This document shows positions 20,866-59,021 of a stretch of DNA of 59,021 nt, in pieces. This DNA is from an uncultured virus (IMG/VR IMGVR_UViG_3300021446_000194) (taxonomy: Varidnaviria; Helvetiavirae; Dividoviricota; Laserviricetes; Halopanivirales). Within the stretch, counting starts at the first letter, position 1. Each line of letters starts with the position of its first letter. The translations under genes and the position numbers were made by a program. Location of the stretch: the IMG/VR virus record IMGVR_UViG_3300021446_000194; one strand, 5' to 3'. Below the pieces are notes generated by a model. The model did no database searches. It saw nothing but the letters and a program-made list of their open reading frames with translations, and had not been told where the DNA came from.

Positions 20866-23800
20866 ATGGTCTTTCCCACGTTTGAAGTGAAGGTGTCAAA
20901 CCAAGTGCTCCGCCCCACCGTCTCCGCTGCCGATCAGATAACCGACGAAGCGGTGTACGAGGTGTCCGAGAAGGTTCTGAAGACGGAAGTTGTCGACGCC
21001 GGCCAGAACACGTACGCGGAGACGGTCACGGAGTTGGGGGCCGAGGAGGAAGTCAATGTTGAGATGCCGGGGCAGTTCGGAGTGTCAACCGCCAGTCTGA
21101 GCAGTGCACTGAATGACCTGAGCAAGAGACAGGATGTAATCCTGTCCGGGGAGGCGGTGAGCGCAGAGATTGAGGTGGTCGACCCTCAGAGCGGTGATGT
21201 TGTGTCATCCCTCGGGATGAAAGACCCCGAAGAGTTGCGTGACACGCCCGAGCCCCCGCAGATCAACTGGGACGCGGAAGTCGAAATGAACGGTGGCGAC
21301 TTCCGTGAGGTGCACCTCGCGGCGAAGAAGGTCTCTAACAATCTTACTCTGGGGGTCGCGGACAACCCCGAACGGGGAGAGACTGGTAAGGCTCTGCTGG
21401 CCTACGCTGACGGGGACACAGACGACATCGGATTCTACCCGGACTTCGAGTTTACCGGGATCGGGTCCCCGCCTGGGGACGTTGGTGCCATCTACAGCCT
21501 GGACCTTCTTGGGGACCTGAGAAATTCGATTGATAAGCCTTCATCGACGGCTCTACGGCTGCGTTTCAGTGGTGTTGAGTTTCCTGTTGAGGCGAGCTTT
21601 AGTATTGGCCCCGAATCTGAGACTAGCGTCCGATACATCGTCAGTCCGAGACTCAAGCAAACCGACTGGGAGCTGACCGATGACCTCGGTGCTATCGACC
21701 CCTCAAGCTACGGGTTTTCCGAGGTCGGGTTCCGGCTCGGCACCGACGGTGAGCATGGCCGCGCCTTGTTCGATCTGATGGGCATGTACGCCGACGAGTA
21801 CCGGATCATCGCCCGCGAGACGGGGATCGAGAGTGCGTCTATAGACCCAGCTAACGTCGGGCTGATCTCGACACAGGCCGACCCCAGCTACTTCGACATC
21901 TACGAGGAAGTGGCTGGGTTCCCCCAGCAGCAGGTTGGTATTGCGTCACGGAACATCGAGGAGTTGCTGAAGCGGTTTAACAAGAGGGACGACTTCGAGC
22001 TTGCGGTGTCGTCCAATCGTCGGTACGTGGCGCTCCAGCACCCATTGTTCACCGCCCGCCTCGCAACAATAGACCCGGATGCAATCAGGGCCGACCCCAG
22101 CCTGCCGGATCTGGAACTTACCTCTGAGGCGCAGGTGCCCTCGGACGAGTTGGTTAATACGCTGTCCCCGATGGTCGGCAAGGATAGAGTTGCTGGGTAC
22201 ATCGTCGGGAACGGTGAAGCGTGGTTGGTCGCCGATGCTTTCAGCGGTGGGTCCGCGTCCCAATTGCAGACAAGCTCAGTTAACGGGCGCGCGTTCACGG
22301 CGCTGTCGGGTGAATATCTTGGGAAGATGATCGACGCCATTCCAGGCATTCCCGGTGGTTCCGTGAGAATGAGAGCCGGAGTGGAGCTTCCCGTTGCGTT
22401 CGAGTACCAGACCGGCGGCGGCGATCTCACGGCTGTCTCCACAATTGCCCCACGCCAAATAACGGACGACTTCCCCGAGAAGATCCGCGATATGAAGGAG
22501 GCGATCCCAAACGGTCGGGATGTCCTGAACTGGATAGACCCGGCGAACCCCGACGACTGGGACAACCCTGATTTCTCGGTGTCCGCATTCTCGGGCGCCA
22601 AGATAGAGCCGCTTTCGGAGCGCGTTCGGGCTGAGCGTCTCCAGTCCTACCCCGTGGAGCTTGATGTCGAGTTCACCCATTTCGGGGAGTCCGACGAGGC
22701 GTGGTCCTACGAGGTGGATGAAATGGAAGTCACCGGGAACAGAGGAAGGAAGCGAGACACCACAGTCTACCTCGAACTGGAAGACGGCGAAGACTTCGGC
22801 GCTTCCGACAACGCCATCCGGAGTGCGTTGGAGGATGTGGGCGACGCCTTCGACTTCAGCCTGATCGACACGGGTGAGCGCGTCGCGCAGGCGACGTTCA
22901 GCTCTGAAGACGAGTACACAGTCGAGCTACTGAACGTCCAGCCAAATACCAATCACGCGATCACCACCTCCGACGGGTACCGGATTCGCAGTCTCACCCG
23001 GGACGACAACGAGTACATCTACACCAGCGCCCCGGACGAAACGCCCGCAGAGGGGCGGGTCGCCTTTCGGGCCGTCGAGGACCCGCAGGGGAGCACGTTC
23101 GGATTCTATCTCGACATGATCGACAACGACGATGTTGAGGCGCGAGCGAGCGTTACTGGGCTGCCTTCTATTAGCCAAGCCTACGGGGCTATGGTAGAGT
23201 GGATTAGGAACCACACGTTAGAAGATGCCGTCGAGACCGCTGGCGGCGAAGTGACCGTCTCCGACCGCGAGGTGCGCGACCAGCTATCGGAGTTGGCTGA
23301 CACGTACGTCGACTACAACATGGAGGAGCGGCCGGGGAGTGGCGTCGATGAAGGGGAGTTCTATGCAGCCCTCGTCGGGAAACTTAACGTCCTTCCTGAC
23401 GCTTCCCACCGGGCAGACATCAGCGTCCGAACCCCGACTGAGCAGCGCCCTACATACAAGGTCGACTGGACGGTATCCATCATGCCAAGTCGCCTGGGTG
23501 GGCTGGTAGACAGTCAGCACCTCGGCGATAATGACATTGGGGAGACCGACGACAAGGCTGACGTTCCCGGGATGGTGGAGGAGGCGATCCGTACCCTCAG
23601 CGGCTACAGTCCATACCTCGCTCGACGCGACAACGAGGATGTCCCGCCTCAGAACGCGCGTAACCTCCCGGGATTCCGCGAGAACGACATCCGGAGCTAC
23701 GTCGACGCATCGCTCCCGGTGCCGAAAGAAGAACTTGCTTCTGAGATCGCGGCGGACGCCGACGGTCCGCCGGTCGAACTAGAGGAGGTGTCGCAGGTGG

Positions 23801-26800
23801 GCCCATCCCGCGCGGAGGTGTTGGAAGAAGACGGTGTGTTCGACGTGATTGACGTGGCGGTCCTCCTGTCGTCCACCAAGACGAGCTTCCTCTCTACGAC
23901 GCTGGTCAATCTTCCCGAGACACCACGGGAAAGCATACAGGAGGCAGCAGCAAAAGTGTGGGCTCGGTACATCTGGCCGAAGCGTGAGCTACCCGACGGG
24001 TATGATCGTATCGGGTCAGGCGACGCGGAGCCCCCAGAAACCGACAGCGATCCCGTGCTGGAGGAAGATACGTCTCCGGAACCGCCGGACATCGACGATC
24101 TCCCCTCTGCGTTCGGCGACTGGGAAGCGACGACGATGGACGACGCAAGCCCGGTGTACGCCCGCGAGTTTGAGATCAACGGCGTCGAGGTGCAGTCTCA
24201 GGTGTCTGTTCAGCCAGCCAACGATGGTGAGACGTGGGAGGTTATCCACAGCATTGCCACGTTCGGCGATGATGGATCTGAGGTAAACTCGTTCACCGTC
24301 GACACAGGGTACGAGTCGGTGGAGATGGCTGTGCCCTTCCTCGCTACCTACCTTGGGGACGAGGCTCTCGAAGACATCGCCGAGAAGATGCCCTCGGTTG
24401 AGGCTCCCCCGGACGATGAAGATGAAGAGGAGGCTGCCATGGAACCCGACTCTGACCCTGACCCGTCTGAAACGCCTGAGCAGCCCCCGGAGCCGTCTGA
24501 CGGCGGCGGAGACGGCGGCGACAATGTGTTTCCCATCGAGGCTGAAGTGACGCTGGTTTTGGATGACGGCGAGGCGGTGGTCGACGTGGAGGCGTCGAAC
24601 CTCGACGCCGTCGATGAGGAGACGTTGGGCGACTTCTTCGACCTCATGGAGATCGTCGCCGACCCCACGTTCCGGGACCCACCGGATTTCATCGCGCGCG
24701 CTGTGTTCGAGTCGCCGATGGAGTACGACTTCGTGGAGTACAACGAAGCGACGGAAGGGCTAGACCCCGAAGACTTCGACCCGCCCGGTGGGTTCGAGAC
24801 CACTACCGACGAGGGCGTGACCAAGCCCGACATGGAGCCGCTGGAGACGTGGCGTGCTCCGGGGGGTGAGCAGGTAGAGATATATCGAACTACGGTTTAT
24901 ATCAACCCGCCCCTCAGCGACTTCACTGTCGAGGCCGACATCCCGCCGGAGACGGCGCAAGAAGTGGTCCGGAACATCGAGGGGTACACGCTGCTCAACG
25001 AGCGAGAAGAGCAAGAGCCCTCGCAACCGCAGGACCAGGACTCCCAGGAACCCCCGGAACCGTCACGCAGTGAAGGCACCGACGAGTCAGAGACTGAGGA
25101 AAGACCTACCCCGAAGGCGGACGAACCGGATGTTACTGTGAGCGAACGCGAAGACGAAAAGTCCGTTCGAGGCGTCCCGGTGAGCACGATCCCGGATGTG
25201 CTCGAACCCGTCCTTCCGGGCGTCGAGGTTGAGGTGGACGTGACAGGGAACGTCGTGGAGCTTCGGGAGAACGTTGTCCCCGACGCGCAGGACCTCTTCG
25301 ACGGAGAGCCTGCGGTCGTAACCGCCCAGACAGGCGAGGGCAGCGACCTCTTCGAGCAGGCTGTGGTAGCGTACAACGCTGCTGTCGATACTGATCCCCT
25401 CGACGTGGAGGCGGTCAACGACGCAAGACGCAACGCTGATCTCGACATCCCCCTGCTCGATGAATCCCCGGCGGTGAGTGAAAGCGAAGAGCCGGAGCCC
25501 GAACCTGTTGGCGGCGAAGACCTGCCGGTCACTGACCAGGATCGGGTTGAGCTACAGGAACTTGCTGAGGTCCTTAACAACGAGCAGATTCCGGGAGAAA
25601 CCCGGGCGGAGGAGGCCAGCGAGACCGTCGACAGCATCTTGCAGTCGGCATATCCCAACACCATCGAAGACTCGCGTGTTGATCTGGACTTCGGCCGTGG
25701 CGGCGGTCTTCGTGCGTTGGTTCTGACAGCCCAACTTACCTCTCAGAAGCGGGACGACATCGCTGGTAGGTCTATCTGGGCTGACCCCGGTCCGCAGGGA
25801 GGGACTGTCGTCCAGTTCCGGATACTCGGCGATCCCAACAACCCCGTCTCTCTGATCCAGTCTTTCGAGAAGGTGATGGACGGGCTGGATGAGACACGGC
25901 CAGGGAACCAGCGCCTCAAAGACAAGCTCGACCACATCGAGGACTTCACCACGTTCAAGTTCGTCCGAGGGAACGTCGATCTTGACAAGTCGTTCATCAG
26001 CGCCCCGGAAATGCGGGCGCTACTCCCCGAACTGGCTGAAGAGATACAGAGGAGTTTCGACGCCCACCTCCAGAACATCGACGCTGCGTACTACGCTGCT
26101 CAGAAGGTACACGAGGTAGACACGGGCGGAGACATCCGCGGCCGTTTGGAGCAGTCCGTGGGCGACTTCCCATCTCCCGGTTCGCGTGCAGAGATGCTCG
26201 AAAAGGCGTTGGGCGCGCTGGACTCTGGCGACTTCGAGCCCGGTGTGTTCTTCCGTCGGTACTACGACTCCATCGCCCGTGACACGCCTTCGGATATCTG
26301 GGAGGAGCGCGGTATCGTCACCGACGACGATGAAGAGGAAGAGTCCGAACCGGAGCCCGAACCGGAGTCGGAACCAGAACCGGACTCCACTGAACGCGAA
26401 CCTGGACCCGAACCCGAGTCCGAGCCGTCCCCGGGCGGTGAAGAGCCGACCCAGCAGGGTGTCGAGGAGAAGGATACCTCATTCTCCGAGATGTCTGAGG
26501 TGGTGACAGACCTCTCTGCTGTGGAAGAAGAGTTGGAGGAAGTGGTCGGCAACACCAGACTCGGCGACATCGGCGACCCCACAGTCGCCGACGAAGCACG
26601 GGAGGCGCTGACCGAAGTGCAGGAGATTAAGGGTGTGTTGAGTGAGAAGTCGCTGGGGGAGGTCCAGCCCTCGGATATCACGCAAGCCCGCTTCGCCGTC
26701 GATATCGGACAGGCTGCTGTCGAGAACATGGAGACCGCCGCCGAAGAGTCAGCGGACCCCGGGCCTGAACCCCAGCCTGAGCCCACTCCCGAGCCCCAAC

Positions 26801-27327
26801 CCGAGCCCACTTCGGAGCCCCAACCCGAGCCTGTTGGCGAGTTCAACACCTTCGAGCAGGCCGTCGAGGAACGCGGGCCTATCCAAGTGGAGGTGTTCGC
26901 GCTGGAGCGCGGCTTCGGTAACGTATTCGGGCTTCGGCTCCCCGACCAGCCGGAACTGACGCAGAAGGAGGGGGAGGGCGTCGCCGATCAGGTTGCCCAA
27001 GAGCTGTTCAGCGAAGTCGACCCCGACGAGTACGCCCCAGGCGAGGCTATCGGAACGGCTGTCGTCTCACCTGACCGCGTCGAGAGTATCGAAGTGGGCG
27101 GCGTCACGGACGACCAGCCAGCCCAACCTGCGACTGATCCCGAACCGCAGTCCGGTGGGTCTGCCGCGGAGCAGATGGGCCGGATGGATACCGGCGACGT
27201 GGAGATTGATGAGCTAACCATCGAGGATCTGGACATCGAGGAGGTGCGGGTCGGTGATGTCACCGCGGAGAACGTCAACACCAAAGACGTGCGGGACATT
27301 CGGTCCGACATCGAAGAAGACATCTGA
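20866..27327 (+). CDS. 2153-aa acidic protein with two tandem N-terminal PCNA domains, a central HhH motif and Pro/Glu linkers
   Basis: Domain 1: DPEELRDTPEPP, ADGDTDD, YSLDLL, EFPV, YIVSPR. Domain 2: IDPANVG, IDPDAIRADPSLPDLEL, EYLGKMIDAIP, GVELPV, IAPR. HhH: LEEVSQVGPSRAEVLEEDG. Confidence 0.85.
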   Translation: MVFPTFEVKVSNQVLRPTVSAADQITDEAVYEVSEKVLKTEVVDAGQNTYAETVTELGAEEEVNVEMPGQFGVSTASLSSALNDLSKRQDVILSGEAVSAEIEVVDPQSGDVVSSLGMKDPEELRDTPEPPQINWDAEVEMNGGDFREVHLAAKKVSNNLTLGVADNPERGETGKALLAYADGDTDDIGFYPDFEFTGIGSPPGDVGAIYSLDLLGDLRNSIDKPSSTALRLRFSGVEFPVEASFSIGPESETSVRYIVSPRLKQTDWELTDDLGAIDPSSYGFSEVGFRLGTDGEHGRALFDLMGMYADEYRIIARETGIESASIDPANVGLISTQADPSYFDIYEEVAGFPQQQVGIASRNIEELLKRFNKRDDFELAVSSNRRYVALQHPLFTARLATIDPDAIRADPSLPDLELTSEAQVPSDELVNTLSPMVGKDRVAGYIVGNGEAWLVADAFSGGSASQLQTSSVNGRAFTALSGEYLGKMIDAIPGIPGGSVRMRAGVELPVAFEYQTGGGDLTAVSTIAPRQITDDFPEKIRDMKEAIPNGRDVLNWIDPANPDDWDNPDFSVSAFSGAKIEPLSERVRAERLQSYPVELDVEFTHFGESDEAWSYEVDEMEVTGNRGRKRDTTVYLELEDGEDFGASDNAIRSALEDVGDAFDFSLIDTGERVAQATFSSEDEYTVELLNVQPNTNHAITTSDGYRIRSLTRDDNEYIYTSAPDETPAEGRVAFRAVEDPQGSTFGFYLDMIDNDDVEARASVTGLPSISQAYGAMVEWIRNHTLEDAVETAGGEVTVSDREVRDQLSELADTYVDYNMEERPGSGVDEGEFYAALVGKLNVLPDASHRADISVRTPTEQRPTYKVDWTVSIMPSRLGGLVDSQHLGDNDIGETDDKADVPGMVEEAIRTLSGYSPYLARRDNEDVPPQNARNLPGFRENDIRSYVDASLPVPKEELASEIAADADGPPVELEEVSQVGPSRAEVLEEDGVFDVIDVAVLLSSTKTSFLSTTLVNLPETPRESIQEAAAKVWARYIWPKRELPDGYDRIGSGDAEPPETDSDPVLEEDTSPEPPDIDDLPSAFGDWEATTMDDASPVYAREFEINGVEVQSQVSVQPANDGETWEVIHSIATFGDDGSEVNSFTVDTGYESVEMAVPFLATYLGDEALEDIAEKMPSVEAPPDDEDEEEAAMEPDSDPDPSETPEQPPEPSDGGGDGGDNVFPIEAEVTLVLDDGEAVVDVEASNLDAVDEETLGDFFDLMEIVADPTFRDPPDFIARAVFESPMEYDFVEYNEATEGLDPEDFDPPGGFETTTDEGVTKPDMEPLETWRAPGGEQVEIYRTTVYINPPLSDFTVEADIPPETAQEVVRNIEGYTLLNEREEQEPSQPQDQDSQEPPEPSRSEGTDESETEERPTPKADEPDVTVSEREDEKSVRGVPVSTIPDVLEPVLPGVEVEVDVTGNVVELRENVVPDAQDLFDGEPAVVTAQTGEGSDLFEQAVVAYNAAVDTDPLDVEAVNDARRNADLDIPLLDESPAVSESEEPEPEPVGGEDLPVTDQDRVELQELAEVLNNEQIPGETRAEEASETVDSILQSAYPNTIEDSRVDLDFGRGGGLRALVLTAQLTSQKRDDIAGRSIWADPGPQGGTVVQFRILGDPNNPVSLIQSFEKVMDGLDETRPGNQRLKDKLDHIEDFTTFKFVRGNVDLDKSFISAPEMRALLPELAEEIQRSFDAHLQNIDAAYYAAQKVHEVDTGGDIRGRLEQSVGDFPSPGSRAEMLEKALGALDSGDFEPGVFFRRYYDSIARDTPSDIWEERGIVTDDDEEEESEPEPEPESEPEPDSTEREPGPEPESEPSPGGEEPTQQGVEEKDTSFSEMSEVVTDLSAVEEELEEVVGNTRLGDIGDPTVADEAREALTEVQEIKGVLSEKSLGEVQPSDITQARFAVDIGQAAVENMETAAEESADPGPEPQPEPTPEPQPEPTSEPQPEPVGEFNTFEQAVEERGPIQVEVFALERGFGNVFGLRLPDQPELTQKEGEGVADQVAQELFSEVDPDEYAPGEAIGTAVVSPDRVESIEVGGVTDDQPAQPATDPEPQSGGSAAEQMGRMDTGDVEIDELTIEDLDIEEVRVGDVTAENVNTKDVRDIRSDIEEDI
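26764..26833 (+). repeat. Tandem coding repeat (PEPQPEPT)n
   Basis: About 24-nt units such as GAGCCCACTCCCGAGCCCCAACCC. Confidence 0.8.
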
Positions 27328-27406
27328 CACGTCGGTGGTTTGTTGGGGCTATGTAATCCTTTCCCATACAGCAGTTTTGTCAACCCCCGCGCCGTTGGTA
27401 TATGAT

Positions 27407-27832
27407 ATGAGGAGAACGGTCGAAGTTATTCCCCCATCGGTGGTGACTGCTCCCGTTCCTGCTGGCGACGACGCGGACTATTCGGTGTATCCGCCTCGCC
27501 TTCTCCTTCCGGGAGAGGCGGTCCGGTGGTCGTCAGACCTCCACCACGTCTGCCCCCGCTGCTGGGACGTATTCACCCTCCGAAAGCACGATTTTGATGT
27601 CTCGGAGGGTGGTGATATAACGGTGAGTTCGTCCGTCGCCTGTCCGCTGTGCGGTCTCCATACCTATATTCGAGATGGGAAGCACGAGGACCCACTCGAA
27701 GAATATGGGAGCCCAGCAGAGGACTGGGAACAAGCCCGCCGAGAACGAGTCCAGTTACTTTTGGGGTACCGCCCCACGGCCACCCAATTAGTGATTAAAC
27801 AGCACTATCCGGGGTTCTCTCCCAACGTCTGA
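27407..27832 (+). CDS. Zinc-binding protein, DUF6527-like
   Basis: CPRC...ITVSSSVACPLCGLHTYIRDG. Confidence 0.5.
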   Translation: MRRTVEVIPPSVVTAPVPAGDDADYSVYPPRLLLPGEAVRWSSDLHHVCPRCWDVFTLRKHDFDVSEGGDITVSSSVACPLCGLHTYIRDGKHEDPLEEYGSPAEDWEQARRERVQLLLGYRPTATQLVIKQHYPGFSPNV

Positions 27833-27950
27833 GTACCGCCGTATCGTAGCACCCTGTGGCGTCGACGGCCGTCGTTTTTGCGCTCCCAAATATGACCCCA
27901 CTTCGGCGCCTCCCCCGTGAGACCTAACCCAATGCGGCGGGTAGTGGCGG

Positions 27951-28223
27951 GTGGATATGAAGGGATCAGAGCCAGCAGGACATAGCGAACGGAAGGTGCA
28001 GGCCCTCGCTCTACTCCGCGCACACGGGCCGCTGACGGTGGCTGAGGTCGCCGATGCTGCTGGGGTCACTAAGACCAACATGGAGAACGTGCTCATGCGC
28101 TGTCGTCGGTCTGGATACGTCGAGAGTGAGGGTGGAGAGTTCCGGCCGGGGCAGGGTCAACAGCCCGCGGAGTACGATGTGACCAGCCGGGGCGTGGCGC
28201 GGCTCCAGTACGAGGGCCGGTGA
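27951..28223 (+). CDS. Winged-helix transcription regulator
   Basis: GPLTVAEVADAAGVTKTNMENVL...GYVE...YDVTSRG. Confidence 0.85.
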   Translation: MDMKGSEPAGHSERKVQALALLRAHGPLTVAEVADAAGVTKTNMENVLMRCRRSGYVESEGGEFRPGQGQQPAEYDVTSRGVARLQYEGR

Positions 28224-28320
28224 GGCTGGATCTGGCTTAGGGAGGTATGGGGTGGCGATGGCTGGGGAGGTGAGATCGGGGCTGAGGTGGTGTCAACTGA
28301 TCTACCGCTAAGTTGTGCAA

Positions 28321-28452
28321 GACGTTAAACGTCTTTTCGTAACTTTACTTTTCCGCGCTAAACAAAGTTGTTTTGGCGTGTTAGTCGCTCTACTCACTGT
28401 TAACCGTGAGAACAGGGTGCGGAAATATGTATTTCCGAAGGACTTAACTACC
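28321..28452 (+). promoter_or_regulatory. AT-rich control region with palindromes and a BRE/TATA-like box
   Basis: GACGTTAAACGTC (28321), CTCAC-N8-GTGAG (28393), GGAAATA-TG-TATTTCC (28421), then GAAGGACTTAAC. Confidence 0.6.
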
Positions 28453-29303
28453 ACCCGCTGCACAGACACATTGAACGCGACGCGAGACGACGCAAAGCGC
28501 GACGCGGCGACGTGGCGCGCTGCGTGGTAGTCGACGACCGGCGCTCGTCGGACGCTCCCGACGACGCTGCCGAGGCCGGACGCGGATACCCGGACCTCGG
28601 CCTGTCAGCGAACGCATGTCGGCGTTGCCGGCCGCTGCGCCGCTGTCGCCTGCACGCTCCGCCCCGCAACCCCATGACGCACGCGGGACGCCTGTGCTCC
28701 GCTGCTGGCGGCCTCACGGTCGCTCTCACGAGGCAGGCGAGCCCATCACGTCACGAACCCACCGACGAGCCGACAAGGCGCGGGCTGACGGGCCGGCGTC
28801 GCCTCACGGCGGCGCGACAAGGCCCGGGCCGACGCGCCGGGCTCCGAGGGATCGAGACAGGCATACGGCGGCTGATGTCGTCCCGTGCCGCGAGTAGAGG
28901 GGAGCGGAGCACAACGCCAAGCCGGCAGGATAACCGCGAGGTGGACCGCCCGGTGTCCGGGTTGTCGGGTTCGATCCCCGGCCGTGACCCTGACGGCGTC
29001 GGCGTTGTCGGCGGGTTTTGGACCACTAACCGCTACCCGGTGGGCACTCTCTCGGCTGCGAGGCCGACGAGCCAACGCCGGAAGACCGCACGACGACGGG
29101 AACGCAACGAGTAGGGCCGGATCGAGAGACCCGACCCGCGGGCCGACGCGAAGCCGTACCCAGAGTGCGACACTGTCCGCTGATTCCTCCGCTGCGGGTC
29201 TCTGACCCAAATGCGGGATCAACTGGTCACACACACCTAAACCGCAACAGTCCGGCCGCTCGAACCGCGGGCCGTTGGGCTGTTGTGGGGGTGTTGTTCG
29301 ATC
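28450..29303 (+). ncRNA. Candidate large structured RNA or long 5' leader
   Basis: No acidic ORF; dense nested inverted repeats; T-loop-like arm at 28965-28981; several UCAC-loop hairpins. Confidence 0.55.
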
Positions 29304-29615
29304 ATGTCTGATACCGACAAAGTCAGCCCGGACGAGCTCCGGGAGCAACTGGAGGACCGCCACGGAGTCGTTGCTGTCGACTGCTGGGAACCCATCGAGG
29401 ACCACAACGAGCGGGTCAGCGACGACTTTAAGCAGTTCCCAATCACCGTGAGGAGCGGGGATAGCGGCACGCCGCTGTTCGCGGAAGTGAGACAGGCTGG
29501 ATGGTTCGTCGCGGGAGCGTACCCGCACGCACACCCGGATAGATCGGGATGCTGCACGACGCTACTGGTCCGCGACGTGCCGCCCCAAGAGACCGTCCCC
29601 ACGGCCGAGGCGTAG
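29304..29615 (+). CDS. Hypothetical cassette-like protein
   Basis: Acidic ORF following a hairpin and GGGGGTG motif. Confidence 0.75.
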   Translation: MSDTDKVSPDELREQLEDRHGVVAVDCWEPIEDHNERVSDDFKQFPITVRSGDSGTPLFAEVRQAGWFVAGAYPHAHPDRSGCCTTLLVRDVPPQETVPTAEA

Positions 29616-29679
29616 CAACCCCGCTGTGCTGGCTCGCGCTGGCACTGCGGCCTTCCCAGCACCATGCTGGGGGTGTGCT

Positions 29680-30129
29680 ATGACTGAAGCCAACCCGCTG
29701 CCGACTGCAAGTCAGGAGGATTGGACCGAAGAGGATCGCGCGCTTGCCGCCACCGGCGACTTGTGGAAGCCCGACGGCGACGACAACCCTGCCGCCACCG
29801 GCAGTAGAGCGACGACAAACGACGGGCGAGTCTGGGATGTCGCTCCGTCGACTGTCAGCGTCGACGACAACCGGGAGGTCCGAATCTCTCCCCCCGACCG
29901 CGACGGCTGGGTCACATGCGAGCCGACACACCCAGCGTCGGGCAAATGGACTCCGAACCCCATGACCACGGTTATGACTGTCCCACGGGACGGTCACGAC
30001 TACGTCGCCGTTTTCAGGCGTCTCACCTGCGGGGCCGGGACGGTCGGGTACCGGCTCCGCTACGTCGGGCCCTACCTGCACTCCGGAGGTGCGTACTCTG
30101 AGGCGTTCCCCGTCGAGGGGGTTTACTGA
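29680..30129 (+). CDS. Hypothetical cassette-like protein
   Basis: ORF bounded by two repeat copies. Confidence 0.75.
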   Translation: MTEANPLPTASQEDWTEEDRALAATGDLWKPDGDDNPAATGSRATTNDGRVWDVAPSTVSVDDNREVRISPPDRDGWVTCEPTHPASGKWTPNPMTTVMTVPRDGHDYVAVFRRLTCGAGTVGYRLRYVGPYLHSGGAYSEAFPVEGVY

Positions 30130-30189
30130 CCGACACGCCGGCTCGTGCCGGCGTTGCGGCCTACCCCGGAACAGCCGGGGGTGTGACCT

Positions 30190-30693
30190 ATGTCCAACGA
30201 CCACGGCCTATCAGTTGGCGATGTAGTACAGAAGCAGAACGCCCAACGGCTCGACGTTATCGCGGTTTCCGACAACGACGGCGCCGTAACGCTCGTGCCC
30301 GAGGGAAAGCGCACTATCGGCTTCGGCGACCCCGAGACGTGGGGCGCTGAAACCGTTGCTGGCTTCATCGAGAACGGCGACATAAAGGTTCTCGATGGCG
30401 ACAACGACGCCGACGAGTTCGGCGGCACCGACGACCTGCCTGGACGCGCCCAAGCCCGTGAGATCGGCACGACGCTGGAGATCCGCACGAGGGAGGCCCA
30501 ACACGGCTATGTTGCAGACTTCGAGCGGGGTTCCGAGTTGGTGGGAGAGATGCTGAACATCTCCCACTCGGCGGCGTCACTCTCGCCCGGCGCAACGCTG
30601 GAGTTCGGCGGAGACCGTCGGAAGCGCGTTACCGTGCTCGATCAGGGAGCGAGCGGGAGCCTGCTTGCTGTCGAGATCGGCGACAGAGACTAA
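30190..30693 (+). CDS. Hypothetical cassette-like protein
   Basis: ORF bounded by two repeat copies. Confidence 0.8.
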   Translation: MSNDHGLSVGDVVQKQNAQRLDVIAVSDNDGAVTLVPEGKRTIGFGDPETWGAETVAGFIENGDIKVLDGDNDADEFGGTDDLPGRAQAREIGTTLEIRTREAQHGYVADFERGSELVGEMLNISHSAASLSPGATLEFGGDRRKRVTVLDQGASGSLLAVEIGDRD

Positions 30694-30756
30694 CCGCCTG
30701 CGGTACCGGCTCACGCCGGCGCTGCGGCCTTCCCAGCACCGCGCTGGGGTGTGACC

Positions 30757-31119
30757 ATGACCGAAGCCACGACGACGGACGACGACGAGGTACAGCCCGA
30801 GGACGTGATCAATGGCTCAAGGCTTGCCCGCGACTGGGAGCCCGAGGACTGGCGGCAGGCATACCGCAACGCCGGCAGTGTCGAGGAGGCTAACGACGTG
30901 GCTCAAGCCTTCAAGCTGCTGGATTCTGGCCGTTGGTGGGACATGTGCCAAGAGGTGCACAAGGTCTTTGGCTGCTCAGATAAATCCGGCCGCGAAGCGT
31001 TCGCGGAGGCCCACCCGCAGATGGTGGAGTGGGCAAGCGTTTGGGGACTCTGCGAGCATATGGCGCGCTTCCCGCGCCACACGGAGGCTAGCGAGGAGCG
31101 GCTAACCTTCCGCGACTAA
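30757..31119 (+). CDS. Hypothetical cassette-like protein
   Basis: ORF bounded by two repeat copies. Confidence 0.8.
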   Translation: MTEATTTDDDEVQPEDVINGSRLARDWEPEDWRQAYRNAGSVEEANDVAQAFKLLDSGRWWDMCQEVHKVFGCSDKSGREAFAEAHPQMVEWASVWGLCEHMARFPRHTEASEERLTFRD

Positions 31120-31183
31120 AAGCGCCGCTGGGCCGCCTCACGGCGGCGCTGCGGCTTCTCCCGGACCGCCCGGGGAGTGTGCC

Positions 31184-31402
31184 ATGAACTCGACAACAGT
31201 CCGCGAGACCGAAGAGTATGGACAGTTTGCACCGTCGGGCTACACAGTCGCCCCGCTCGGTGACAGCTACGTTCGGTTTTTCGGCGGGTTCAGAGTCGAA
31301 CCCTCCCGTCACTGACAGGCCGTCACGCATGACGTGCTCGTAGATCAGGACGGTAGCGTGCAAGTACATATCAACGGAACGCCGCTCGCAGAACTCCCGT
31401 AA
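31184..31402 (+). pseudogene. Cassette-like ORF interrupted by an in-frame TGA at 31313-31315
   Basis: The frame stays open after the TGA to a TAA that overlaps the next repeat copy. Confidence 0.6.
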
Positions 31403-31456
31403 CGCCACCTCACGGCGGCGCTACGGCCTACCCTGGCACCGTGCCGGGGGTGTGAT

Positions 31457-31777
31457 ATGACCACCGAAGCCAACGCCGACGACTTCGCGGCAGAGATGGA
31501 CAGCAACCCGTGCGGCCGCCGTGTCGGCCTCCGAGCAGTCGGGCCCTACGTGCTCGAACGCTACGACGATCTGATTACTGCCCGCCGTCGACGCAAGAAC
31601 GGCGATGAGTTACAGGAGCGGATCGGCGTTTGGGTCAAGGACCCCGACCATTGGCGGACGTACCGCAAAGTCGGATCGTTCAGGGCCGTAGCAGCCAATA
31701 TCGCCAAGATGTGGGACAGGCTGGACGACACCGATGCCGTCGCCGAGTGGGTCGAAGAGTACCCATCCGACATCTAA
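31457..31777 (+). CDS. Hypothetical cassette-like protein
   Basis: ORF bounded by two repeat copies. Confidence 0.8.
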   Translation: MTTEANADDFAAEMDSNPCGRRVGLRAVGPYVLERYDDLITARRRRKNGDELQERIGVWVKDPDHWRTYRKVGSFRAVAANIAKMWDRLDDTDAVAEWVEEYPSDI

Positions 31778-31842
31778 CCGGCCGCGGTGCCGGCTCATGC
31801 CGGCGCTGCGGCGTCCTGGGGACGGTCCCGGGGGTGTGTTCG

Positions 31843-32103
31843 ATGGTACGAGTTCGAGACCTACATTTCCGCCGACGACCCGGCTACTGCGTAGAGTTTG
31901 ATAGATTCGGGCTGTTCGTTCTCTCCGAGCAGCAGCTCGACGCGGTCGCCGAGGCCGTCGACACGATCAAAGCCGAGACCGCCGACGCTAACGAGACTGT
32001 TACCGGCAGCGTCCACGTATCCGGGGCGAACGCCCGGATCGTGTGGGACGATCCGGACCGCGACCCGCTGGGTCCGACCGATGTAACGCCGGAGGCTGTC
32101 TAA
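31843..32103 (+). CDS. Hypothetical cassette-like protein
   Basis: ATG directly after a repeat copy. Confidence 0.75.
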   Translation: MVRVRDLHFRRRPGYCVEFDRFGLFVLSEQQLDAVAEAVDTIKAETADANETVTGSVHVSGANARIVWDDPDRDPLGPTDVTPEAV

Positions 32104-32219
32104 TGTCTCTCTGGTATAACGTCTGTCGGAACTTCCGACGGGGCGACGGGCTCGGCGAAGATCGGCAGGGTGAAACGTGCTGCTCCGAGTGCGGTACGAG
32201 GCTCCGCCCGAGCGGCTGA
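32103..32219 (+). CDS. Tiny Cys-containing protein (38 aa)
   Basis: TAATG coupling; CSECG; ends at the next repeat. Confidence 0.45.
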   Translation: MSLWYNVCRNFRRGDGLGEDRQGETCCSECGTRLRPSG

Positions 32220-32282
32220 AATCCCGCGGGCCGGTTCACGCCGGCGCCGCGGCTTTCCCCCGGAGCGGTCGGGGGTGTGACC

Positions 32283-32591
32283 ATGTCCGATCAAGACACG
32301 ACCGACGACGAGTATAACCGACCCGACGACGGTCCCGCCACGGGACACGCGGCCGTTGGGTTCGTGACCGGCCAACGCTTCCCCGACGGCGAGCGTCCGG
32401 AGGAGGTCCGGATCATCTACGAGCGCGACGGGAGCGAGCACGCGGCCGTTGTTCTCCGAACATCTGGCTCCGTCGAAATCAGCCCTGGCGACTCTGTGCG
32501 GTTCCAGACCGCCCGCACAAACGTAGGGAGCACAACCGACGTTGTGTATATCGACCGGCTGCTCGGGGCCCGCCCCGTTCCCGCCGAGTGA
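32283..32591 (+). CDS. Hypothetical cassette-like protein
   Basis: ORF bounded by two repeat copies. Confidence 0.75.
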   Translation: MSDQDTTDDEYNRPDDGPATGHAAVGFVTGQRFPDGERPEEVRIIYERDGSEHAAVVLRTSGSVEISPGDSVRFQTARTNVGSTTDVVYIDRLLGARPVPAE

Positions 32592-32640
32592 CCCCCCCAC
32601 GGGCTCGCTCGGCTTCTCCCGGCTTTGCCGGGGTGTGACT

Positions 32641-32940
32641 ATGTCAGAGACCGACACCGACACCGACACGGCGACCGTCAGAGAAAAGAAGTTCAACGGG
32701 ACGGCGACGTTCGAGATCGAAACAACGTCAGCCCGGAAGGCTAAGGCTGCCGCCGAACGCTTCTTCCGCGAAAAACATGGTGAACGTCCCACTGAGACGG
32801 TCGTACAGGAACGCGACCACAACTACCACTGCATCCACGATAAAGCCGACAAAAGCGACCATTCGCTTTACGATGTGATAGTCACCGACCACAGTTCGGG
32901 GACTCATGCAGATGTTGAGACCTACGAGTTCGACCAGTAG
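32641..32940 (+). CDS. Hypothetical cassette-like protein
   Basis: ORF bounded by two repeat copies. Confidence 0.75.
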   Translation: MSETDTDTDTATVREKKFNGTATFEIETTSARKAKAAAERFFREKHGERPTETVVQERDHNYHCIHDKADKSDHSLYDVIVTDHSSGTHADVETYEFDQ

Positions 32941-32992
32941 ACCCGCCTCAAAGCGGGCTGCTGCGTACCCGGCACCGCGCCGGGCTGTGACC

Positions 32993-33274
32993 ATGTCCGG
33001 CAAGGCAACTAACAACGGATGGAAAACTGATGATCCGATCTACAACCAATGCGAGTGTGGGCGCCACGTCCGAGGCGACCGCATCTGTGGGTGCGGTCGA
33101 CGGCAGGGAAAGGGACACACCTACATGGCGAATGGGAACACTGACAGGGCAGGCAACTACGCCGTCGTGGCTGGTAACTATCAGTGGGCAAGTGACACGT
33201 CGGCATTTGATACCCCTCCTGGCGTCGTTCGTGCGTCGGTTAAGGCCACCCTCGACGCCTCGGGGCTCCGATAA
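32993..33274 (+). CDS. Small zinc-finger protein
   Basis: CECG...CGCG; ATG after a repeat copy. Confidence 0.6.
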   Translation: MSGKATNNGWKTDDPIYNQCECGRHVRGDRICGCGRRQGKGHTYMANGNTDRAGNYAVVAGNYQWASDTSAFDTPPGVVRASVKATLDASGLR

Positions 33275-33524
33275 TGCCGAGTGTGCCTTTTGCGGCAAGG
33301 TGTACGTTCACTGGACGGTCCGCTGCGTCGACTGTGGCTATCTGCACGTGCAGGAGGAGCACGCATAACTGACGGCGAGGGTCATTCCCTCCCCGTCGCT
33401 TGGGGCCTGACACGCCCCTGGGGGCTGACACGCCCCCCACACCCCCGCAGATCAACGCTTACCGGCGCTGGGCGGTCCCCCCCGCCCCGCCGGCCTTTCC
33501 GGCATCGCGCCGGGGTGTGACAAC

Positions 33525-34100
33525 ATGGACGATAACACCGAGCGAAAGCAAACTCTGAGGACGGGGATGGACCTCGCTCAGCGCAACAAGTACCAAGCTC
33601 GAATCGACCAGCGGCTCAGGGACGCTTTTGAGAACCGCGAGGAAGCGGTCAAGCAGTCCAGAGACCGCTTTGCGAGAGCCATTGAGGAGGGCTGGACAAT
33701 CCGCCACGCCGTCGCCACGTCCGGCGCCCACGGGTGGCAGATCGAAAGTGACGACGATGGCCTCCGGCTGTCGGAAGGTGCGTACCCGGGAGATGTTTCG
33801 TGGTTAGTCTTTGAGAATGGTTGGATTCACCGCACCGGCGCGCGCTGGCTCAAAGACGACGACCTTGCCGCCTGGGTCCGCCGGAAGAAAGATAGTCAGG
33901 AGGCAATCACCGAGCGGCTGCGAGAAAAAGAGCGCGAGGCGTTTGAGGCTGATGACCGTATCCGGTATGCGGTGGACACAACCGGCGAGAAGATGCCGGG
34001 GTGGTGGGTTTTCAGGCCGACTGGTTACACCGGCACTCCTCGGCATGTTGTCGCGTATGCCGCCGGGTACGACGCTCGACAGGGCGGGGAAGAAGAATAA
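33525..34100 (+). CDS. Hypothetical protein
   Basis: ATG after a repeat copy. Confidence 0.8.
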   Translation: MDDNTERKQTLRTGMDLAQRNKYQARIDQRLRDAFENREEAVKQSRDRFARAIEEGWTIRHAVATSGAHGWQIESDDDGLRLSEGAYPGDVSWLVFENGWIHRTGARWLKDDDLAAWVRRKKDSQEAITERLREKEREAFEADDRIRYAVDTTGEKMPGWWVFRPTGYTGTPRHVVAYAAGYDARQGGEEE

Positions 34101-34176
34101 GTTAGAAGAGTGAACCACGTCGACGGGCCGGACCCGTCGGCGTCCTCTCACGGTGCGGTGCCGTGTGTTATTAGCT

Positions 34177-34752
34177 ATGCCAGAATACGGGATCTACCTC
34201 GATGTAGACAGTGACGGCGTGTACCTATCCGCGCCTGACCGCTACACGGGGATAACAGCAGCACAGCACGCGACCTACGTCCTCTCCGAGATCGTGGGCA
34301 GCCGCCACGGGGGAAACGCGCCCTACGCGCGGATGCTCATGTCGGCATCCCAGTGGCTCCACGACGCCAGGCAGTACGACTCCGCCCGGGGGATCGTCTA
34401 CTCGGATGAGGGGAGTGACGAACACCCACCGGCTCGGGGGCAGGTGGCGGACGTGTTCCTGATCCTAGCGGGAGCACACGCTGCCGACACTTTCGGACGG
34501 ACTGGGACAAAAAAGATGGAGGAGGGTGTTTCCTTCGCCAACGATCTGGCCGAACGCCTTGGCGACGAGATCGGGACGACGCCGATCAACCACGGACCAG
34601 CGGTTCAAGAGCCGGAGCGTATACACCACTATAAAGGCCCGTCATCGTTCATGCAGCAGCGGTTCTGTACCGACTGTGGCGGCGAGGCGACGGGTGAGCT
34701 CCCCGAGGGGGGAAAGTGCCCGTTCTGCGAGGAGAGTGGGACGCTGATCTGA
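34177..34752 (+). CDS. Hypothetical protein with C-terminal Zn ribbon
   Basis: CTDC...CPFC. Confidence 0.75.
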   Translation: MPEYGIYLDVDSDGVYLSAPDRYTGITAAQHATYVLSEIVGSRHGGNAPYARMLMSASQWLHDARQYDSARGIVYSDEGSDEHPPARGQVADVFLILAGAHAADTFGRTGTKKMEEGVSFANDLAERLGDEIGTTPINHGPAVQEPERIHHYKGPSSFMQQRFCTDCGGEATGELPEGGKCPFCEESGTLI

Positions 34753-34802
34753 CCACCCGAGGATCACACCTTGGGAGGTTCTATCCGCCACGCGGCGGAG
34801 GT

Positions 34803-35828
34803 ATGACCATGGAATGGAACCCGTCCGCTAAGTACGAGTTGTACCTGCATTGGATAGACGACATCCTCACGGACGAGAAGCGTACCGTTCGTGACGTTTA
34901 CTACGCACTCGAATCCCGGGGCTTCCCGGACGAGTGCGCGGAGCAGGGGTACGACTTCAAGTATCGGTTTGTCAAGAGAGCGGTCAAGAAAGGCAGGAGG
35001 GCGGGGTATATCGACCCGTCGATGATCGTTGACACATCCCGGCGGGCCGTCGAAATCCCCAGCGAGGGGTACGACGACCCAGTGGAGTTCGCCGGGCGAA
35101 TAATGTCGACGGTAGCGAGCGGCTACAATGAGAACTTCTGGCGGGACCAGGACCATTACGTCGAGGTATGGCTCGAAAAGCAGTCGTTGGCGTCGGTGTT
35201 TGCGCCGATCTGCGCCGAACATAACGTCCGACTTGAAGCCACCCGCGGCGACTGGTCCGACAGCAAGGTCTATGAGGCAGCACACCGACTGCTTGACAAG
35301 CTGAACGCGGGCAAGCAGGTGCGCGTGGTCTACTGGGGGGACTTCAACCCCAGCGGGTTCCACGCACCCGTCAGCGTCCAACAGACGCTCAAGCACTACG
35401 GCCTCGATCTGGGGCCGCGGCAGCAGGACGAGCCCCCGTCGCGGTATTTCGACATCTGGCCGCAGAGTGAGCCGTCGTCGTGGAGCGGGCACGAAGGCGC
35501 CGACATCATGTTCGAGCGCGCGGGGCTAAACCTCGAACACATCAAGCGGTACAGTCTGCCTGAAAACCCCAACCCTTCGTCTTCGGACAAGGACCGCCAG
35601 CTACGCGAGCGGTTCCGGGAGCACGTTTCGGAGGGGCGAGACGTGAACGTCGAGCTTAACGCCCTCAAGGAGTTCCACCGCGACGATCTCGAAGCAGAGA
35701 TCAGGAATGGGATAACGCAGTATATCGACACCACGCAGCGCGCGACCACCGAAGAGCGTGTGGGCGAGCGCCAAGAGGCGATTCAGGAGGCGTTCAACGT
35801 GGACAGAGACGCGCTGAGCAGCCTGTAG
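34803..35828 (+). CDS. Topoisomerase VI A/Spo11-like protein (Mini-A type; WHD plus TOPRIM)
   Basis: TVRDVYY (catalytic Tyr context), VEVWLEK, YWGDFNPSG, VELNAL. Confidence 0.8.
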   Translation: MTMEWNPSAKYELYLHWIDDILTDEKRTVRDVYYALESRGFPDECAEQGYDFKYRFVKRAVKKGRRAGYIDPSMIVDTSRRAVEIPSEGYDDPVEFAGRIMSTVASGYNENFWRDQDHYVEVWLEKQSLASVFAPICAEHNVRLEATRGDWSDSKVYEAAHRLLDKLNAGKQVRVVYWGDFNPSGFHAPVSVQQTLKHYGLDLGPRQQDEPPSRYFDIWPQSEPSSWSGHEGADIMFERAGLNLEHIKRYSLPENPNPSSSDKDRQLRERFREHVSEGRDVNVELNALKEFHRDDLEAEIRNGITQYIDTTQRATTEERVGERQEAIQEAFNVDRDALSSL

Positions 35829-58966: not shown

Positions 58967-59021
58967 AAAAAAAAAATCTGGGGTGAGTGGGGCTACCGTA
59001 TTACGGCTACGGAGCACAGGT
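58967..59021. repeat. Terminal direct repeat (identical to 1-55)
   Basis: Exact identity to the window start. Confidence 0.95.

Follow-up and report, generated by a model that had tools for sequence, protein, structure and literature searches.

A long GC-rich non-coding stretch, possibly a leader or spacer, ahead of a small-gene operon in a haloarchaeal virus- or plasmid-like element

Why does a compact genome carry, at the head of an operon, about 0.85 kb of very GC-rich DNA in which no convincing gene can be read, and is this stretch an RNA, the leader of an operon, or a remnant? The stretch in question (28450-29303) belongs to a circular 59-kb contig that we analysed over its full length (the window, 59,021 nt) and that is a complete, circular, ~59-kb, haloarchaeal virus- or plasmid-like element of halite-metagenome origin. 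Every gene from ~10 kb to 46 kb is on the + strand. The interval 28224-29303 holds zero codon-periodic ORFs; it follows a wHTH gene (27951-28223) and ends just before ATG 29304, where an operon of small, cassette-like + strand genes opens that extends to about 35800. A preliminary description of this DNA had called the stretch the largest gap without an acidic ORF, and very GC-rich, and both observations stand. In a crude gene call by codon periodicity, it is the biggest gap of the window that is free of codon-periodic ORFs (809 nt; 1080 nt when an ORF of 46 codons and pI 12 is disregarded). The gap ORFs of at least 40 aa are all basic and aperiodic (pI 9.7-12, GC3-GC2 -0.21 to 0.13); the accepted genes of the window have pI 4-6 and GC3-GC2 0.15-0.45. 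The stretch is non-coding DNA, and its parts are collected in Table 1.

Table 1. Features of the gap and its borders
Feature	Position	Strand	Remark
AT-rich zone, GC about 0.47-0.49, TATA-like runs	28300..28449	+	putative promoter/operator of the possible leader and the operon
Terminator-like hairpin AAGACGU-UAA-ACGUCUU, then short U run	28319..28337	+	3' of the wHTH gene; putative role
CGA/CGC-rich low-complexity 5' part of the gap	28470..28592	+	homologous to the relative, with indels and a frame shift
Arg-rich 200-codon ORF (P0002)	28512..29114	+	judged spurious; pI 11.7, GC3-GC2 0.09
519-nt core	28593..29111	+	aligns gaplessly with one relative lineage; folds at shuffle level
UCAC-loop hairpin, 7 bp	28707..28724	+	in the style of hairpin 1 of the downstream intercistronic element
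UCAC-loop hairpin, 8 bp	28796..28815	+	within the best-conserved part of the core
T-loop-like hairpin gucggg-UUCGAUC-cccggc	28964..28982	+	within a sub-threshold mascRNA-menRNA match
Long 47-nt hairpin CCGCAACAGUCCGGCC.../...GGCCGUUGGGCUGUUGUGG	29242..29288	+	3' arm enters the SD-like GGGGGUG

The base composition of the stretch is itself informative. The core has a GC of 0.72 and the whole of 28450-29303 one of 0.70, with little difference between the three codon phases of the gap. For comparison, 12 + strand genes have a GC of 0.699 at their 2974 fourfold sites and a GC3 of 0.73, and six other intergenic gaps have a GC of 0.49-0.64. Since the region has the GC of the fourfold sites, it looks as weakly constrained DNA is expected to look, and a match of this sort can usefully be read as pointing to weak constraint.

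The Arg-rich ORF is not a gene, and a number of arguments lead to this conclusion. First, its length is unremarkable, because 200-codon ORFs arise by chance in a sequence of 70% GC: 36.6% of 2000 shuffles yield a 220-codon open run. Second, it has neither a family nor a fold. None of eight ORFs tried matched a Pfam family at E<=0.05 (best E-value for the Arg-rich ORF 0.33), the AlphaFold2 model lacks secondary structure (mean pLDDT 41.2), and phmmer among 1.84 billion representatives returned a sole relative, P0003, so that homologs come from one lineage alone. Third, the substitutions look neutral. P0002 and P0003 are identical at 122 of 173 positions (71%) with 0 gaps, and the pattern is indistinguishable from a neutral nucleotide simulation in which the frame was held open: 129 positives against 132.0 +/- 2.8, a mean BLOSUM62 of mismatches of -0.92 against -0.85 +/- 0.20, and 11 codons with at least two changes against 10.9. 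Codon-type conservation is not seen. Single changes, inferred by nearest codon, fall 22/17/1 over codon positions 1/2/3, so no alternative frame is favoured. Fourth, the N-termini (TRRE...RCRGRTRI) of P0003 and of P0006, the latter on a 1,355-nt contig, match frame +2 of the window and not the frame of the ORF, which leaves 27 N-terminal residues frame-shifted in the relative and no common start codon; read by eye, the 5' part differs from the relative by indels on a 9-nt scale. The wHTH protein is better kept than the ORF (77/88 residues identical to the wHTH protein of the relative lineage, 81 positives). It could still be argued that the frame encodes a basic, Arg-rich, disordered protein, e.g. 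one that binds nucleic acids, in which composition and not sequence is under selection. In both relatives the frame stays open up to the same stop, GC is highest (about 0.78) in the phase that would be its third codon position, and a long antisense ORF (28746-29534) lies in the register typical for shadows of real genes. Yet the start is a GTG before which we saw no SD-like motif, 20% Arg is expected from any frame of the same sequence, and almost every other protein of the element is acidic. Together with the neutral substitutions, this makes such a gene extremely unlikely.

Is the stretch then a structured RNA? The preliminary description had seen a densely base-paired region and proposed a large RNA comparable to GOLLD and ROOL, which are large structured RNAs of bacteria and phages. 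The region resembles them in size (0.5-0.9 kb), in being non-coding and in being carried by a mobile or viral genome. All six pairings that had been listed are present, roughly where they had been placed, but pairing is not denser than chance: perfect complementary 7-/8-/9-/10-mers number 68/20/6/2 against 64.8/19.1/5.5/1.6 in dinucleotide shuffles, and 40-47% of 300 such shuffles match or exceed the observed counts. At 70% GC, eye-catching nested pairings arise by chance. Fold energies agree. The core is no more stable than its shuffles (z +0.65 on the + strand and +0.66 on the - strand, 50 dinucleotide shuffles), 28773-29020 has z -0.70 and -0.65 (200 shuffles), and six 200-nt windows starting at 28501-29001 range from z -1.14 to +0.83 on the + strand. 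Only the edges stand out, with z -3.36 for the 200-nt window starting at 28401 and z -3.92 for that starting at 29201; the whole region has z -1.70 on the + strand (1/20 shuffles equally stable) and -0.43 on the - strand (7/20). The 4227 covariance models of Rfam 15, GOLLD and ROOL included, gave 0 matches in the whole window at gathering score.

Comparison with the relative lineage provides a second view of structure. This relative is known as protein only (P0003 and P0007; 23,120-nt contig), and nucleotide changes were inferred by nearest codon with synonymous sites unseen. Simulation implies 81.3 +/- 6.4 differences per 519 nt in the core, i.e. ~84% inferred nucleotide identity. Among 62 inferred changes, 23 are at positions unpaired in the + strand MFE structure, and 20 MFE base pairs are broken against a null of 23.5 +/- 2.6, all changes being deduced from protein. 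On the same structure there are 13 one-sided pair-keeping changes (null 9.4 +/- 2.2) and 2 compensatory pairs (null 0.7 +/- 0.8), and helices of at least 4, 5 and 6 bp hold 19/10/6 compensatory pairs against nulls of 19.1/8.7/3.7. Hence, with one relative lineage and protein-inferred changes, pair-keeping and compensatory changes show no global excess. Substitution density rises to 40-45% of codons in some 60-nt bins, and the most conserved part of the core is 28773-28892 (5/40 codons changed). A separate observation is that 519 nt at this identity contain zero frame-breaking indels, which is unexpected for truly free DNA and hints at constraint; the hint is weakened by ascertainment, as the relative was findable only via an open, called ORF. 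The stretch may also be better kept than its downstream neighbour, since the relative retains the wHTH gene and the stretch, and a search of 5.8 billion proteins turned up no homolog of the downstream 103-aa gene.

Other relatives of the region were sought in several ways. Nucleotide searches (blastn) gave nothing for 28200-29400 against phages and plasmids and nothing for 27300-35200 against plasmids; against phages, the latter interval had a sole match, of 381 nt at 69%, to a topoisomerase-like gene of HCIV-1. Locus searches in IMG/VR, JGI metagenomes and GTDB genomes, seeded with the downstream 102-aa protein, the wHTH protein and the P0002/P0003 alignment, gave just two 20-residue matches (L001, L002) and one compositional match (L003), which we rejected as a relative locus because it shares only 37 nt with the window in blastn.

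These results bear directly on the hypothesis of a large, specifically folded non-coding RNA, either as a transcript of its own, for which the U4 run at 29016-29019 would be a possible end, or as a leader with a tertiary fold to which nearest-neighbour models are blind. Haloarchaeal structural RNAs have high GC and no codon periodicity, which the stretch resembles, and the hypothesis would fit the lower whole-region z on the + strand, the indel-free core, the pair-keeping and compensatory counts on the + strand MFE, and two inferred compensatory pairs in the T-loop-like hairpin (see below). It is nevertheless very unlikely, given a core that folds like shuffled sequence on both strands, complementary k-mers at chance level, helix-wide compensatory counts near their nulls, changes at unpaired positions, broken pairs near their null, heavily substituted bins and no Rfam family at gathering score. 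In these respects, and in having one relative lineage, the region is unlike GOLLD and ROOL. A large archaeal-virus RNA would have been a first, and the tests do not support it.

What does stand out locally is a few short hairpins. The 7-bp UCAC-loop hairpin has -11.0 kcal/mol (z -2.84); in the relative, an inferred 28720 T>C turns a G.U into a G-C pair and 28723 C>G disrupts one basal pair. The 8-bp one has -16.3 kcal/mol (z -2.08), with an inferred 28812 G>A that makes U.G into U-A, and lies between the two copies of a 26-nt direct repeat (28771-28796 and 28815-28840, 88% alike). In all 59,021 nt there are 7 TCAC-loop hairpins of at least 5 bp on the + strand and 0 on the - strand, 2/7 being in the region and 3/7 in the 65-nt elements described below. 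The T-loop-like hairpin, directly downstream of a small hairpin (28948-28962), is thermodynamically ordinary (z -0.43). Its changes inferred from P0003 convert 28966/28980 from C-G to A-U, 28968/28978 from G-C to C-G, and 28965 from U.G to C-G, and a local helix with at least two compensatory pairs occurs in 1.0% of 5000 permutations, for one relative and protein-inferred changes. At E<=10, the only Rfam match over 28100-29500 covers this hairpin (mascRNA-menRNA, 28933-28988); with 18.7 bits and E 1 it falls short of the gathering score, 42.5.

The same hairpin raises the possibility of a site acting at the DNA level, such as a tRNA-derived attachment site on 28964-28990, or an origin, packaging or resolution site. 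Behind its UUCGAUC loop and T-arm-like stem comes an acceptor-like run of 7 nt, a tyrosine integrase is encoded on the element, and the differing T-stems of the two relatives could mean different host tRNAs instead of selection on RNA. There is a precedent: halovirus HF2 has a poor tRNA-like gene, HrrHF2_450, that is read as attP, with the integrase adjacent (PMC8707807). Our element likewise has a poor tRNA-like piece in an integrase-encoding halovirus, but here it is a T-arm-like hairpin alone, and the integrase gene (50829-51806, - strand) is 22 kb off. ARAGORN found 0 tRNA genes, the tRNA-family model had no match at E<=10 over 28100-29500, and no anticodon arm with a 7-nt loop was seen by inspection. 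A 60-nt stretch searched against plasmids (blastn) gave nothing better than E 0.4, the cumulative GC skew has no turn near 28-29 kb, and the high GC is unlike an unwinding region. We consequently give a DNA-level site hardly any credence.

The well-supported, covariation-backed RNA structure of the locus is found past the gap, where every downstream gene is preceded by one of 11 copies of a 65-nt element. This element has two covarying hairpins, GC 0.62-0.80, an SD-like run and start codon at its end, and no AT-rich motif. With the model built on it (R1), scores of the 11 true copies range from 21.2 to 77.8 bits. Within 28450-29303 there is no full-length match; the best is the 8-bp UCAC-loop hairpin (model positions 8-27, 13.7 bits, E 0.21), and 28704-28727 and 28948-28992 show weaker resemblances of 7.7 bits each, the latter followed by CGTGACC where the elements have GTGTGACC before the ATG. 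No copy of the element was found in HCIV-1 (best 11.6 bits, E 0.33). Exact patterns of the T-arm stretch and of the element core had 0 occurrences in IMG/VR. Repeats ahead of successive genes are described for HF2, where class I (58 bp) and class II (29 bp) intergenic repeats are AT-rich carriers of demonstrated promoters (PMC8707807). The 65-nt element, and the hairpins of the same style in the region, are similarly placed in a halovirus; the element differs in being GC-rich, with two covarying hairpins and an SD-like end.

The weak, partial likenesses to the element would fit another origin for the stretch, i.e. as dead DNA left by one or more decayed cassettes (element and small gene) at the operon head, functionless whether transcribed or not. 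The GC equal to that of fourfold sites, the neutral-like evolution of the ORF and the lack of excess folding are all in keeping with this, but the R1 matches in the region are not significant, and the core is free of frame-breaking indels and has pair-keeping changes in three hairpins. A paralogy search of the region against the rest of the window gave the decayed-cassette idea no support (best blastn match 25 nt, E 0.015; tblastn E >= 4e-4, short and low-complexity). Moreover, codon periodicity would be erased only slowly under neutrality, and over such a time 0.8 kb should have been lost by deletion. We regard dead DNA as rather unlikely.

The reading that we prefer, and to which we assign about an even chance, is that 28450-29303 is a long untranslated 5' leader or spacer of the + strand cassette operon. 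It is the best reading because the stretch, which has a few hairpins, is bordered by an AT-rich, operator-like zone on one side and by the operon's first gene on the other. The zone, a putative promoter and operator of leader and operon, contains a perfect palindrome, GGAAATATGTATTTCC, at 28421-28436 that occurs once in the window and has an imperfect inverted partner at 28336-28356. Scans for sigma-70 promoters and bacterial terminators, whose models are inapplicable to archaea, found nothing. The terminator-like hairpin behind the wHTH gene has -6.4 kcal/mol (z -1.99, 8/200 shuffles equally stable). Transcription could start near 28455, 3' of the TATA-like run and the palindrome, the latter plausibly serving as operator for the winged-helix regulator whose gene lies immediately upstream. 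The transcript would then cross ~0.85 kb of GC-rich sequence before reaching the first gene; its 519-nt core would be under little or no constraint on sequence or structure, at the neutral base composition of the genome, and the functional parts, if any, would be the two UCAC-loop hairpins, the T-loop-like one and the terminal 47-nt hairpin. Transcription, its start site and the roles of the hairpins are in this proposal deduced from sequence. Long leaders or spacers ahead of early or middle operons, next to a repressor gene and its operator, are known from phage immunity regions. The locus has the same layout (wHTH gene, terminator-like hairpin, AT-rich zone with palindrome, + strand operon), but binding and transcription are putative here, and the leader would be unusually long and GC-rich for haloarchaea. 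Most haloarchaeal transcripts are leaderless and long leaders are uncommon, which counts against a leader, as does the fact that promoter and operator are called by reading the sequence, with a loose version of the palindrome pattern (<=3 mismatches) no rarer than chance (48/100 shuffles). Also at odds with a core this free of constraint are the absence of frame-breaking indels, a downstream neighbour that may be less well kept, and the persistence of this much sequence in a compact genome, which is unexpected for free DNA given the deletion bias usual for prokaryotic genomes.

The 47-nt hairpin at the 3' end of the possible leader has -35.1 kcal/mol (z -3.29, 3/200 shuffles equally stable). 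It partly covers the SD-like GGGGGUG (29286-29292), 12 nt before ATG 29304, and this arrangement of hairpin and SD-like motif mirrors the layout of the 11 downstream elements. In a near-identical contig from another run, 29276 T>C replaces G.U by G-C in this hairpin (pairing judged by inspection). Four of five available halite-metagenome DNA runs were compared and contained short near-identical pieces of the same element, in which usable variation consisted of 29276 T>C and 29312 T>G alone. The runs also held a few short pieces less than 90% alike, which diverge from the window further along, and an apparent joint that 'goes back 1070' was dismissed as misplacement by the aligner between copies of the repeated element.

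With the large RNA unsupported, the region is of modest interest in itself, as an untranslated stretch of unusual length and high GC that has a few hairpins; it serves chiefly as a caution on the pairings and frames that chance produces at such a GC, and as a pointer to the downstream element. A more speculative view, distinctly improbable in our judgement, is that leader and 11 elements form one RNA-level control system of the cassette operon. UCAC-loop hairpins, which occur on the + strand only, twice in the leader and once in most elements, would dock a viral or host factor for read-through, processing or coupled translation; SD-covering hairpins would gate the cistrons; and the 0.5-kb indel-free core would be a spacer, or a fold that the models miss. 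If true, such an operon architecture would be of a kind new among archaeal viruses.

The gap at 28450-29303 is non-coding. On the most likely reading, which we put at about even chances, it would serve the cassette operon, the series of small + strand genes from 29304 to about 35800, as a long leader that is not translated, or as a spacer. The preliminary description, which had proposed a large non-coding RNA or a regulatory leader, is partly supported: the gap is non-coding, the predicted leader is plausible, and the large structured RNA is not supported. The element carrying the gap has identical ends (bases 1-55 match 58967-59021, 55/55) and is therefore complete and circular, or terminally redundant, with a length of about 58,966 bp. 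Its DNA is present in halite-metagenome DNA runs, its proteins are acidic, and every gene in the interval of roughly 10-46 kb lies on the + strand. It encodes an MCM-type helicase, a GINS/helicase protein, a tyrosine integrase, a subtilase, a CARDB protein, a DNA methyltransferase, a topoisomerase-like protein common to HCIV-1, and one protein with a weak 'virion structural protein' match; this gene content thus identifies a haloarchaeal virus- or plasmid-like element. The 2153-aa protein, which as a whole has no Pfam or PHROG family, matches PCNA sliding-clamp genes of several tailed haloviruses at residues roughly 300-535 and HCIV-1 VP1 at residues 136-535 (26.7% identity, E 2e-25).

Features of the gap and its surroundings (+ numbering of the window)
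Feature	Position	Strand	Remarks
2153-aa acidic protein	20866-27327		PCNA-like part
Winged-helix (wHTH) gene	27951-28223		MarR_2/TrmB match
G-rich, almost C-free tract	28224-28300		directly 3' of wHTH stop codon; repeated GGCTG(G/A)GG-like units, several G-runs
Terminator-like hairpin, then short U run	28319-28337		
Two related 21-nt AT-rich sites (TTCG...TTTCCGC)	28336-28356, 28419-28439		83 nt apart; the second contains the palindrome
Perfect palindrome GGAAATATGTATTTCC	28421-28436		within AT-rich zone
UCAC-loop hairpin	28707-28724		z -2.84
UCAC-loop hairpin	28796-28815		z -2.08
Hairpin gucggg-UUCGAUC-cccggc	28964-28982		inferred changes C-G to A-U, G-C to C-G, U.G to C-G
47-nt hairpin	29242-29288		-35.1 kcal/mol, z -3.29; ends in SD-like GGGGGUG before ATG 29304
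65-nt element, 11 copies	29619-34811	+	hairpin 1, short linker, hairpin 2, ATG; each adjoins start codon of small gene
65-nt element copy ends	29682, 30190, 30759, 31186, 31459, 31845, 32285, 32643, 32995, 33525, 34811	+	

The gap had been described as large, devoid of acidic ORFs and very GC-rich, and all of this is upheld. Codon-periodic ORFs are absent from the wHTH gene to the ATG at 29304, which makes the gap the window's largest of its kind by a crude periodicity-based gene call; all gap ORFs of at least 40 aa are basic (pI 9.7-12; GC3-GC2 from -0.21 to 0.13), and Pfam gave no family for the eight gap ORFs searched. GC, at 0.70-0.72, is nearly even across the three codon phases, and fourfold-degenerate sites have 0.699 (n=2974, 12 + strand genes, with GC3 of 0.73). 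Phase-flat GC at the neutral-site value is the expectation for weakly constrained DNA, and it is because of this value that the gap looks very GC-rich beside the AT-richer regulatory spacers (0.49-0.64 in six other intergenic gaps of the window). Dead DNA or decayed cassettes would be another source of such a stretch, a reading that we consider unlikely; no paralogy of the gap to the rest of the window was found.

A gene for an Arg-rich disordered protein is a most improbable alternative, which concerns the Arg-rich ORF (28512-29114, +). A stop-free run of 220 codons arises in 36.6% of 2000 shuffles, and 20% Arg is the yield of every frame of the gap sequence. Among 5.8 billion proteins the ORF has one relative, P0003 (194 aa, on a 23,120-nt Logan contig), and an exhaustive search of 1.84 billion representative proteins gave none beyond it. 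Their alignment spans 173 residues, of which 122 are identical and no more than 129 positive, and has 0 gaps. We simulated neutral nucleotide substitutions on the window's own 519 nt of this alignable core (28593-29111) until 51 codons differed, keeping the frame open, which mimics the way the relative was found. The simulation gave 132.0 +/- 2.8 positives, a mean BLOSUM62 of mismatches of -0.85 +/- 0.20 (observed -0.92) and 10.9 codons with at least two changes (observed 11, a minimum), and implies a nucleotide identity of about 84%. The substitutions thus fit neutrality, and codon-type conservation is not seen. Single inferred changes at codon positions 1/2/3 number 22/17/1, with no preference for the wobble position of another frame. 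Before residue 28, the frame read in the relative is the window's frame +2, which implies a frame-shifting indel near 28590 and more indels before it; TRRE...RCRGRTRI stretches of P0003 and the related P0006 are visible in the window's six-frame translation. AlphaFold2 gave a mean pLDDT of 41.2 and no secondary structure, weak evidence given the two-row alignment. The wHTH protein and its relative P0007, on a contig of the same 23,120-nt length, share 77 of 88 residues (81 positives), and 12.5% of codons changed in the wHTH gene vs 29.5% in the ORF, so the gap stretch is less constrained than the adjoining gene. The better-kept wHTH gene and the neutral-like changes therefore indicate no protein-level selection on the ORF, which failed every testable criterion as a protein gene.

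The pairing of the gap is equally unexceptional. All six pairings named in the preliminary description are present, but such nesting is not above chance: complementary 7-/8-/9-/10-mers number 68/20/6/2, vs 64.8/19.1/5.5/1.6 in 300 dinucleotide shuffles. The whole stretch folds with z -1.70 on + and -0.43 on - (20 shuffles per strand), the core is no more stable than its dinucleotide shuffles (+0.65 on +, +0.66 on -; 50 shuffles), and 28773-29020 gives -0.70 and -0.65 on the two strands (200 shuffles). Among 200-nt windows only the edges are exceptional (28401, z -3.36; 29101-29301, z -2.0 to -3.9). Rfam gave no match at gathering score and a single one below it (mascRNA-menRNA, 28933-28988, E = 1). 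ARAGORN found no tRNA, and we regard an att site derived from a tRNA, or a DNA site of another kind, as highly improbable.

Covariation was checked against one relative, whose 62 nucleotide changes were inferred from P0003 by nearest codon, with synonymous sites unseen. On the + strand MFE, 23 changes fall at unpaired positions (null 26.3), 13 pairs are kept with a one-sided change (9.4), 2 are compensated on both sides (0.7) and 20 are broken (23.5); compensatory pairs in any helix of at least 4, 5 and 6 bp number 19, 10 and 6 (19.1, 8.7 and 3.7). These counts are near null, thus giving no global pairing signal, with a few local exceptions. A local helix with at least two compensatory pairs occurs in 1.0% of 5000 permutations, a post hoc look at the gucggg hairpin, where 2 of 6 pairs depend on unseen synonymous sites. 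The two UCAC-loop hairpins carry two wobble-to-Watson-Crick changes and one break by the same inferred changes, and in a near-identical contig from another run 29276 T>C is read as G.U to G-C in the 47-nt hairpin. Changed codons per 60-nt bin along the core are 8, 4, 9, 2, 3, 7, 8, 7 and 3, the best-kept part (28773-28892) lying around the second UCAC hairpin and a 26-nt direct repeat. A stretch similar to this repeat and hairpin (28771-28844, 74 nt; 6 other letters, 5 gaps) occurs on a 3,988-nt contig from another halite run that is otherwise dissimilar; by a rough estimate, chance could explain a match of this size in metagenome DNA rich in GC. With its core folding like shuffled sequence, k-mers at chance and no Rfam match at gathering score, the gap falls short of GOLLD/ROOL-type RNAs on every criterion that could be tested, and a real large ncRNA is very unlikely. 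A limited literature search, which does not prove absence, turned up no paper on large structured RNAs in haloarchaeal viruses; the HFTV1 transcriptome passages describe coupling of translation within halovirus operons as well as numerous antisense RNAs, and no large viral ncRNA (PMC12542753).

Structure with strong covariation support lies downstream, in a 65-nt GC-rich element directly 5' of every gene from 29680 to 34811. Hairpin 1 is often GCCGGC-UCAC-GCCGGC within an outer stem, and hairpin 2 has the G-run of the SD-like GGGGGUGUGA as its 3' arm, with ATG next. With a covariance model trained on 6 copies, 11 are detected (21-78 bits), all on +. In this model-fitted alignment 87.9% of cells are paired vs 70.6% in shuffles (38-53% in slid controls), 13 of 19 pairs have changes on both sides, and none of 500 shuffles attains any of these measures. 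No full copy lies inside the gap (best partial match 13.7 bits, E 0.21), none was found in HCIV-1, and an IMG/VR scan with one core pattern gave none. TCAC-loop hairpins of at least 5 bp number 7 on + (2 in the gap, 3 in 65-nt elements, 2 elsewhere) and 0 on -. The element is reminiscent of the intergenic repeats in halovirus HF2, which are AT-rich promoter carriers (PMC8707807); unlike these, it is GC-rich, hairpin-forming and fused to an SD-like motif and start codon.

The leader would be largely unconstrained and carry a few small hairpins in the style of the intercistronic element, and its terminal hairpin would partly occlude the first SD-like motif. Upstream, the wHTH gene, the terminator-like hairpin, an AT-rich zone (GC about 0.47-0.49; TATA-like runs) and the palindrome point to a putative regulated promoter, which would fire near 28455. 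The 21-nt sites are candidate operators for the wHTH regulator, and the G-rich tract may consist of repeats that bind protein, or of DNA or RNA prone to form G-quadruplexes. Phage immunity regions have a regulator, operator and leader layout, which the putative one at the gap resembles. A few points speak, at least in part, against the leader reading. First, the core lacks indels at about 84% inferred identity, a point tempered by ascertainment, since a relative could come to light solely through an open ORF that had been called. Second, both the wHTH gene and the stretch are retained in the relative lineage, while the next gene gave no homolog among 5.8 billion proteins. Third, long leaders are rare in haloarchaea.

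The cassette genes starting at 29680, 30757 and 31457 have common first codons, ATGAC(Y)...GAAGCC (N-termini MTEA, MTEA, MTTEA); the repeated unit therefore reaches into the start of the coding sequence, a pattern suggestive of duplication or recombination at the elements. Among 5.8 billion proteins, the acidic 103-aa product of the first gene past the gap (29304-29615) has no homolog but itself, whereas the wHTH gene and the gap ORF each have a relative in one and the same lineage. The difference hints at an exchange of cassettes downstream of a conserved module of regulator and leader.
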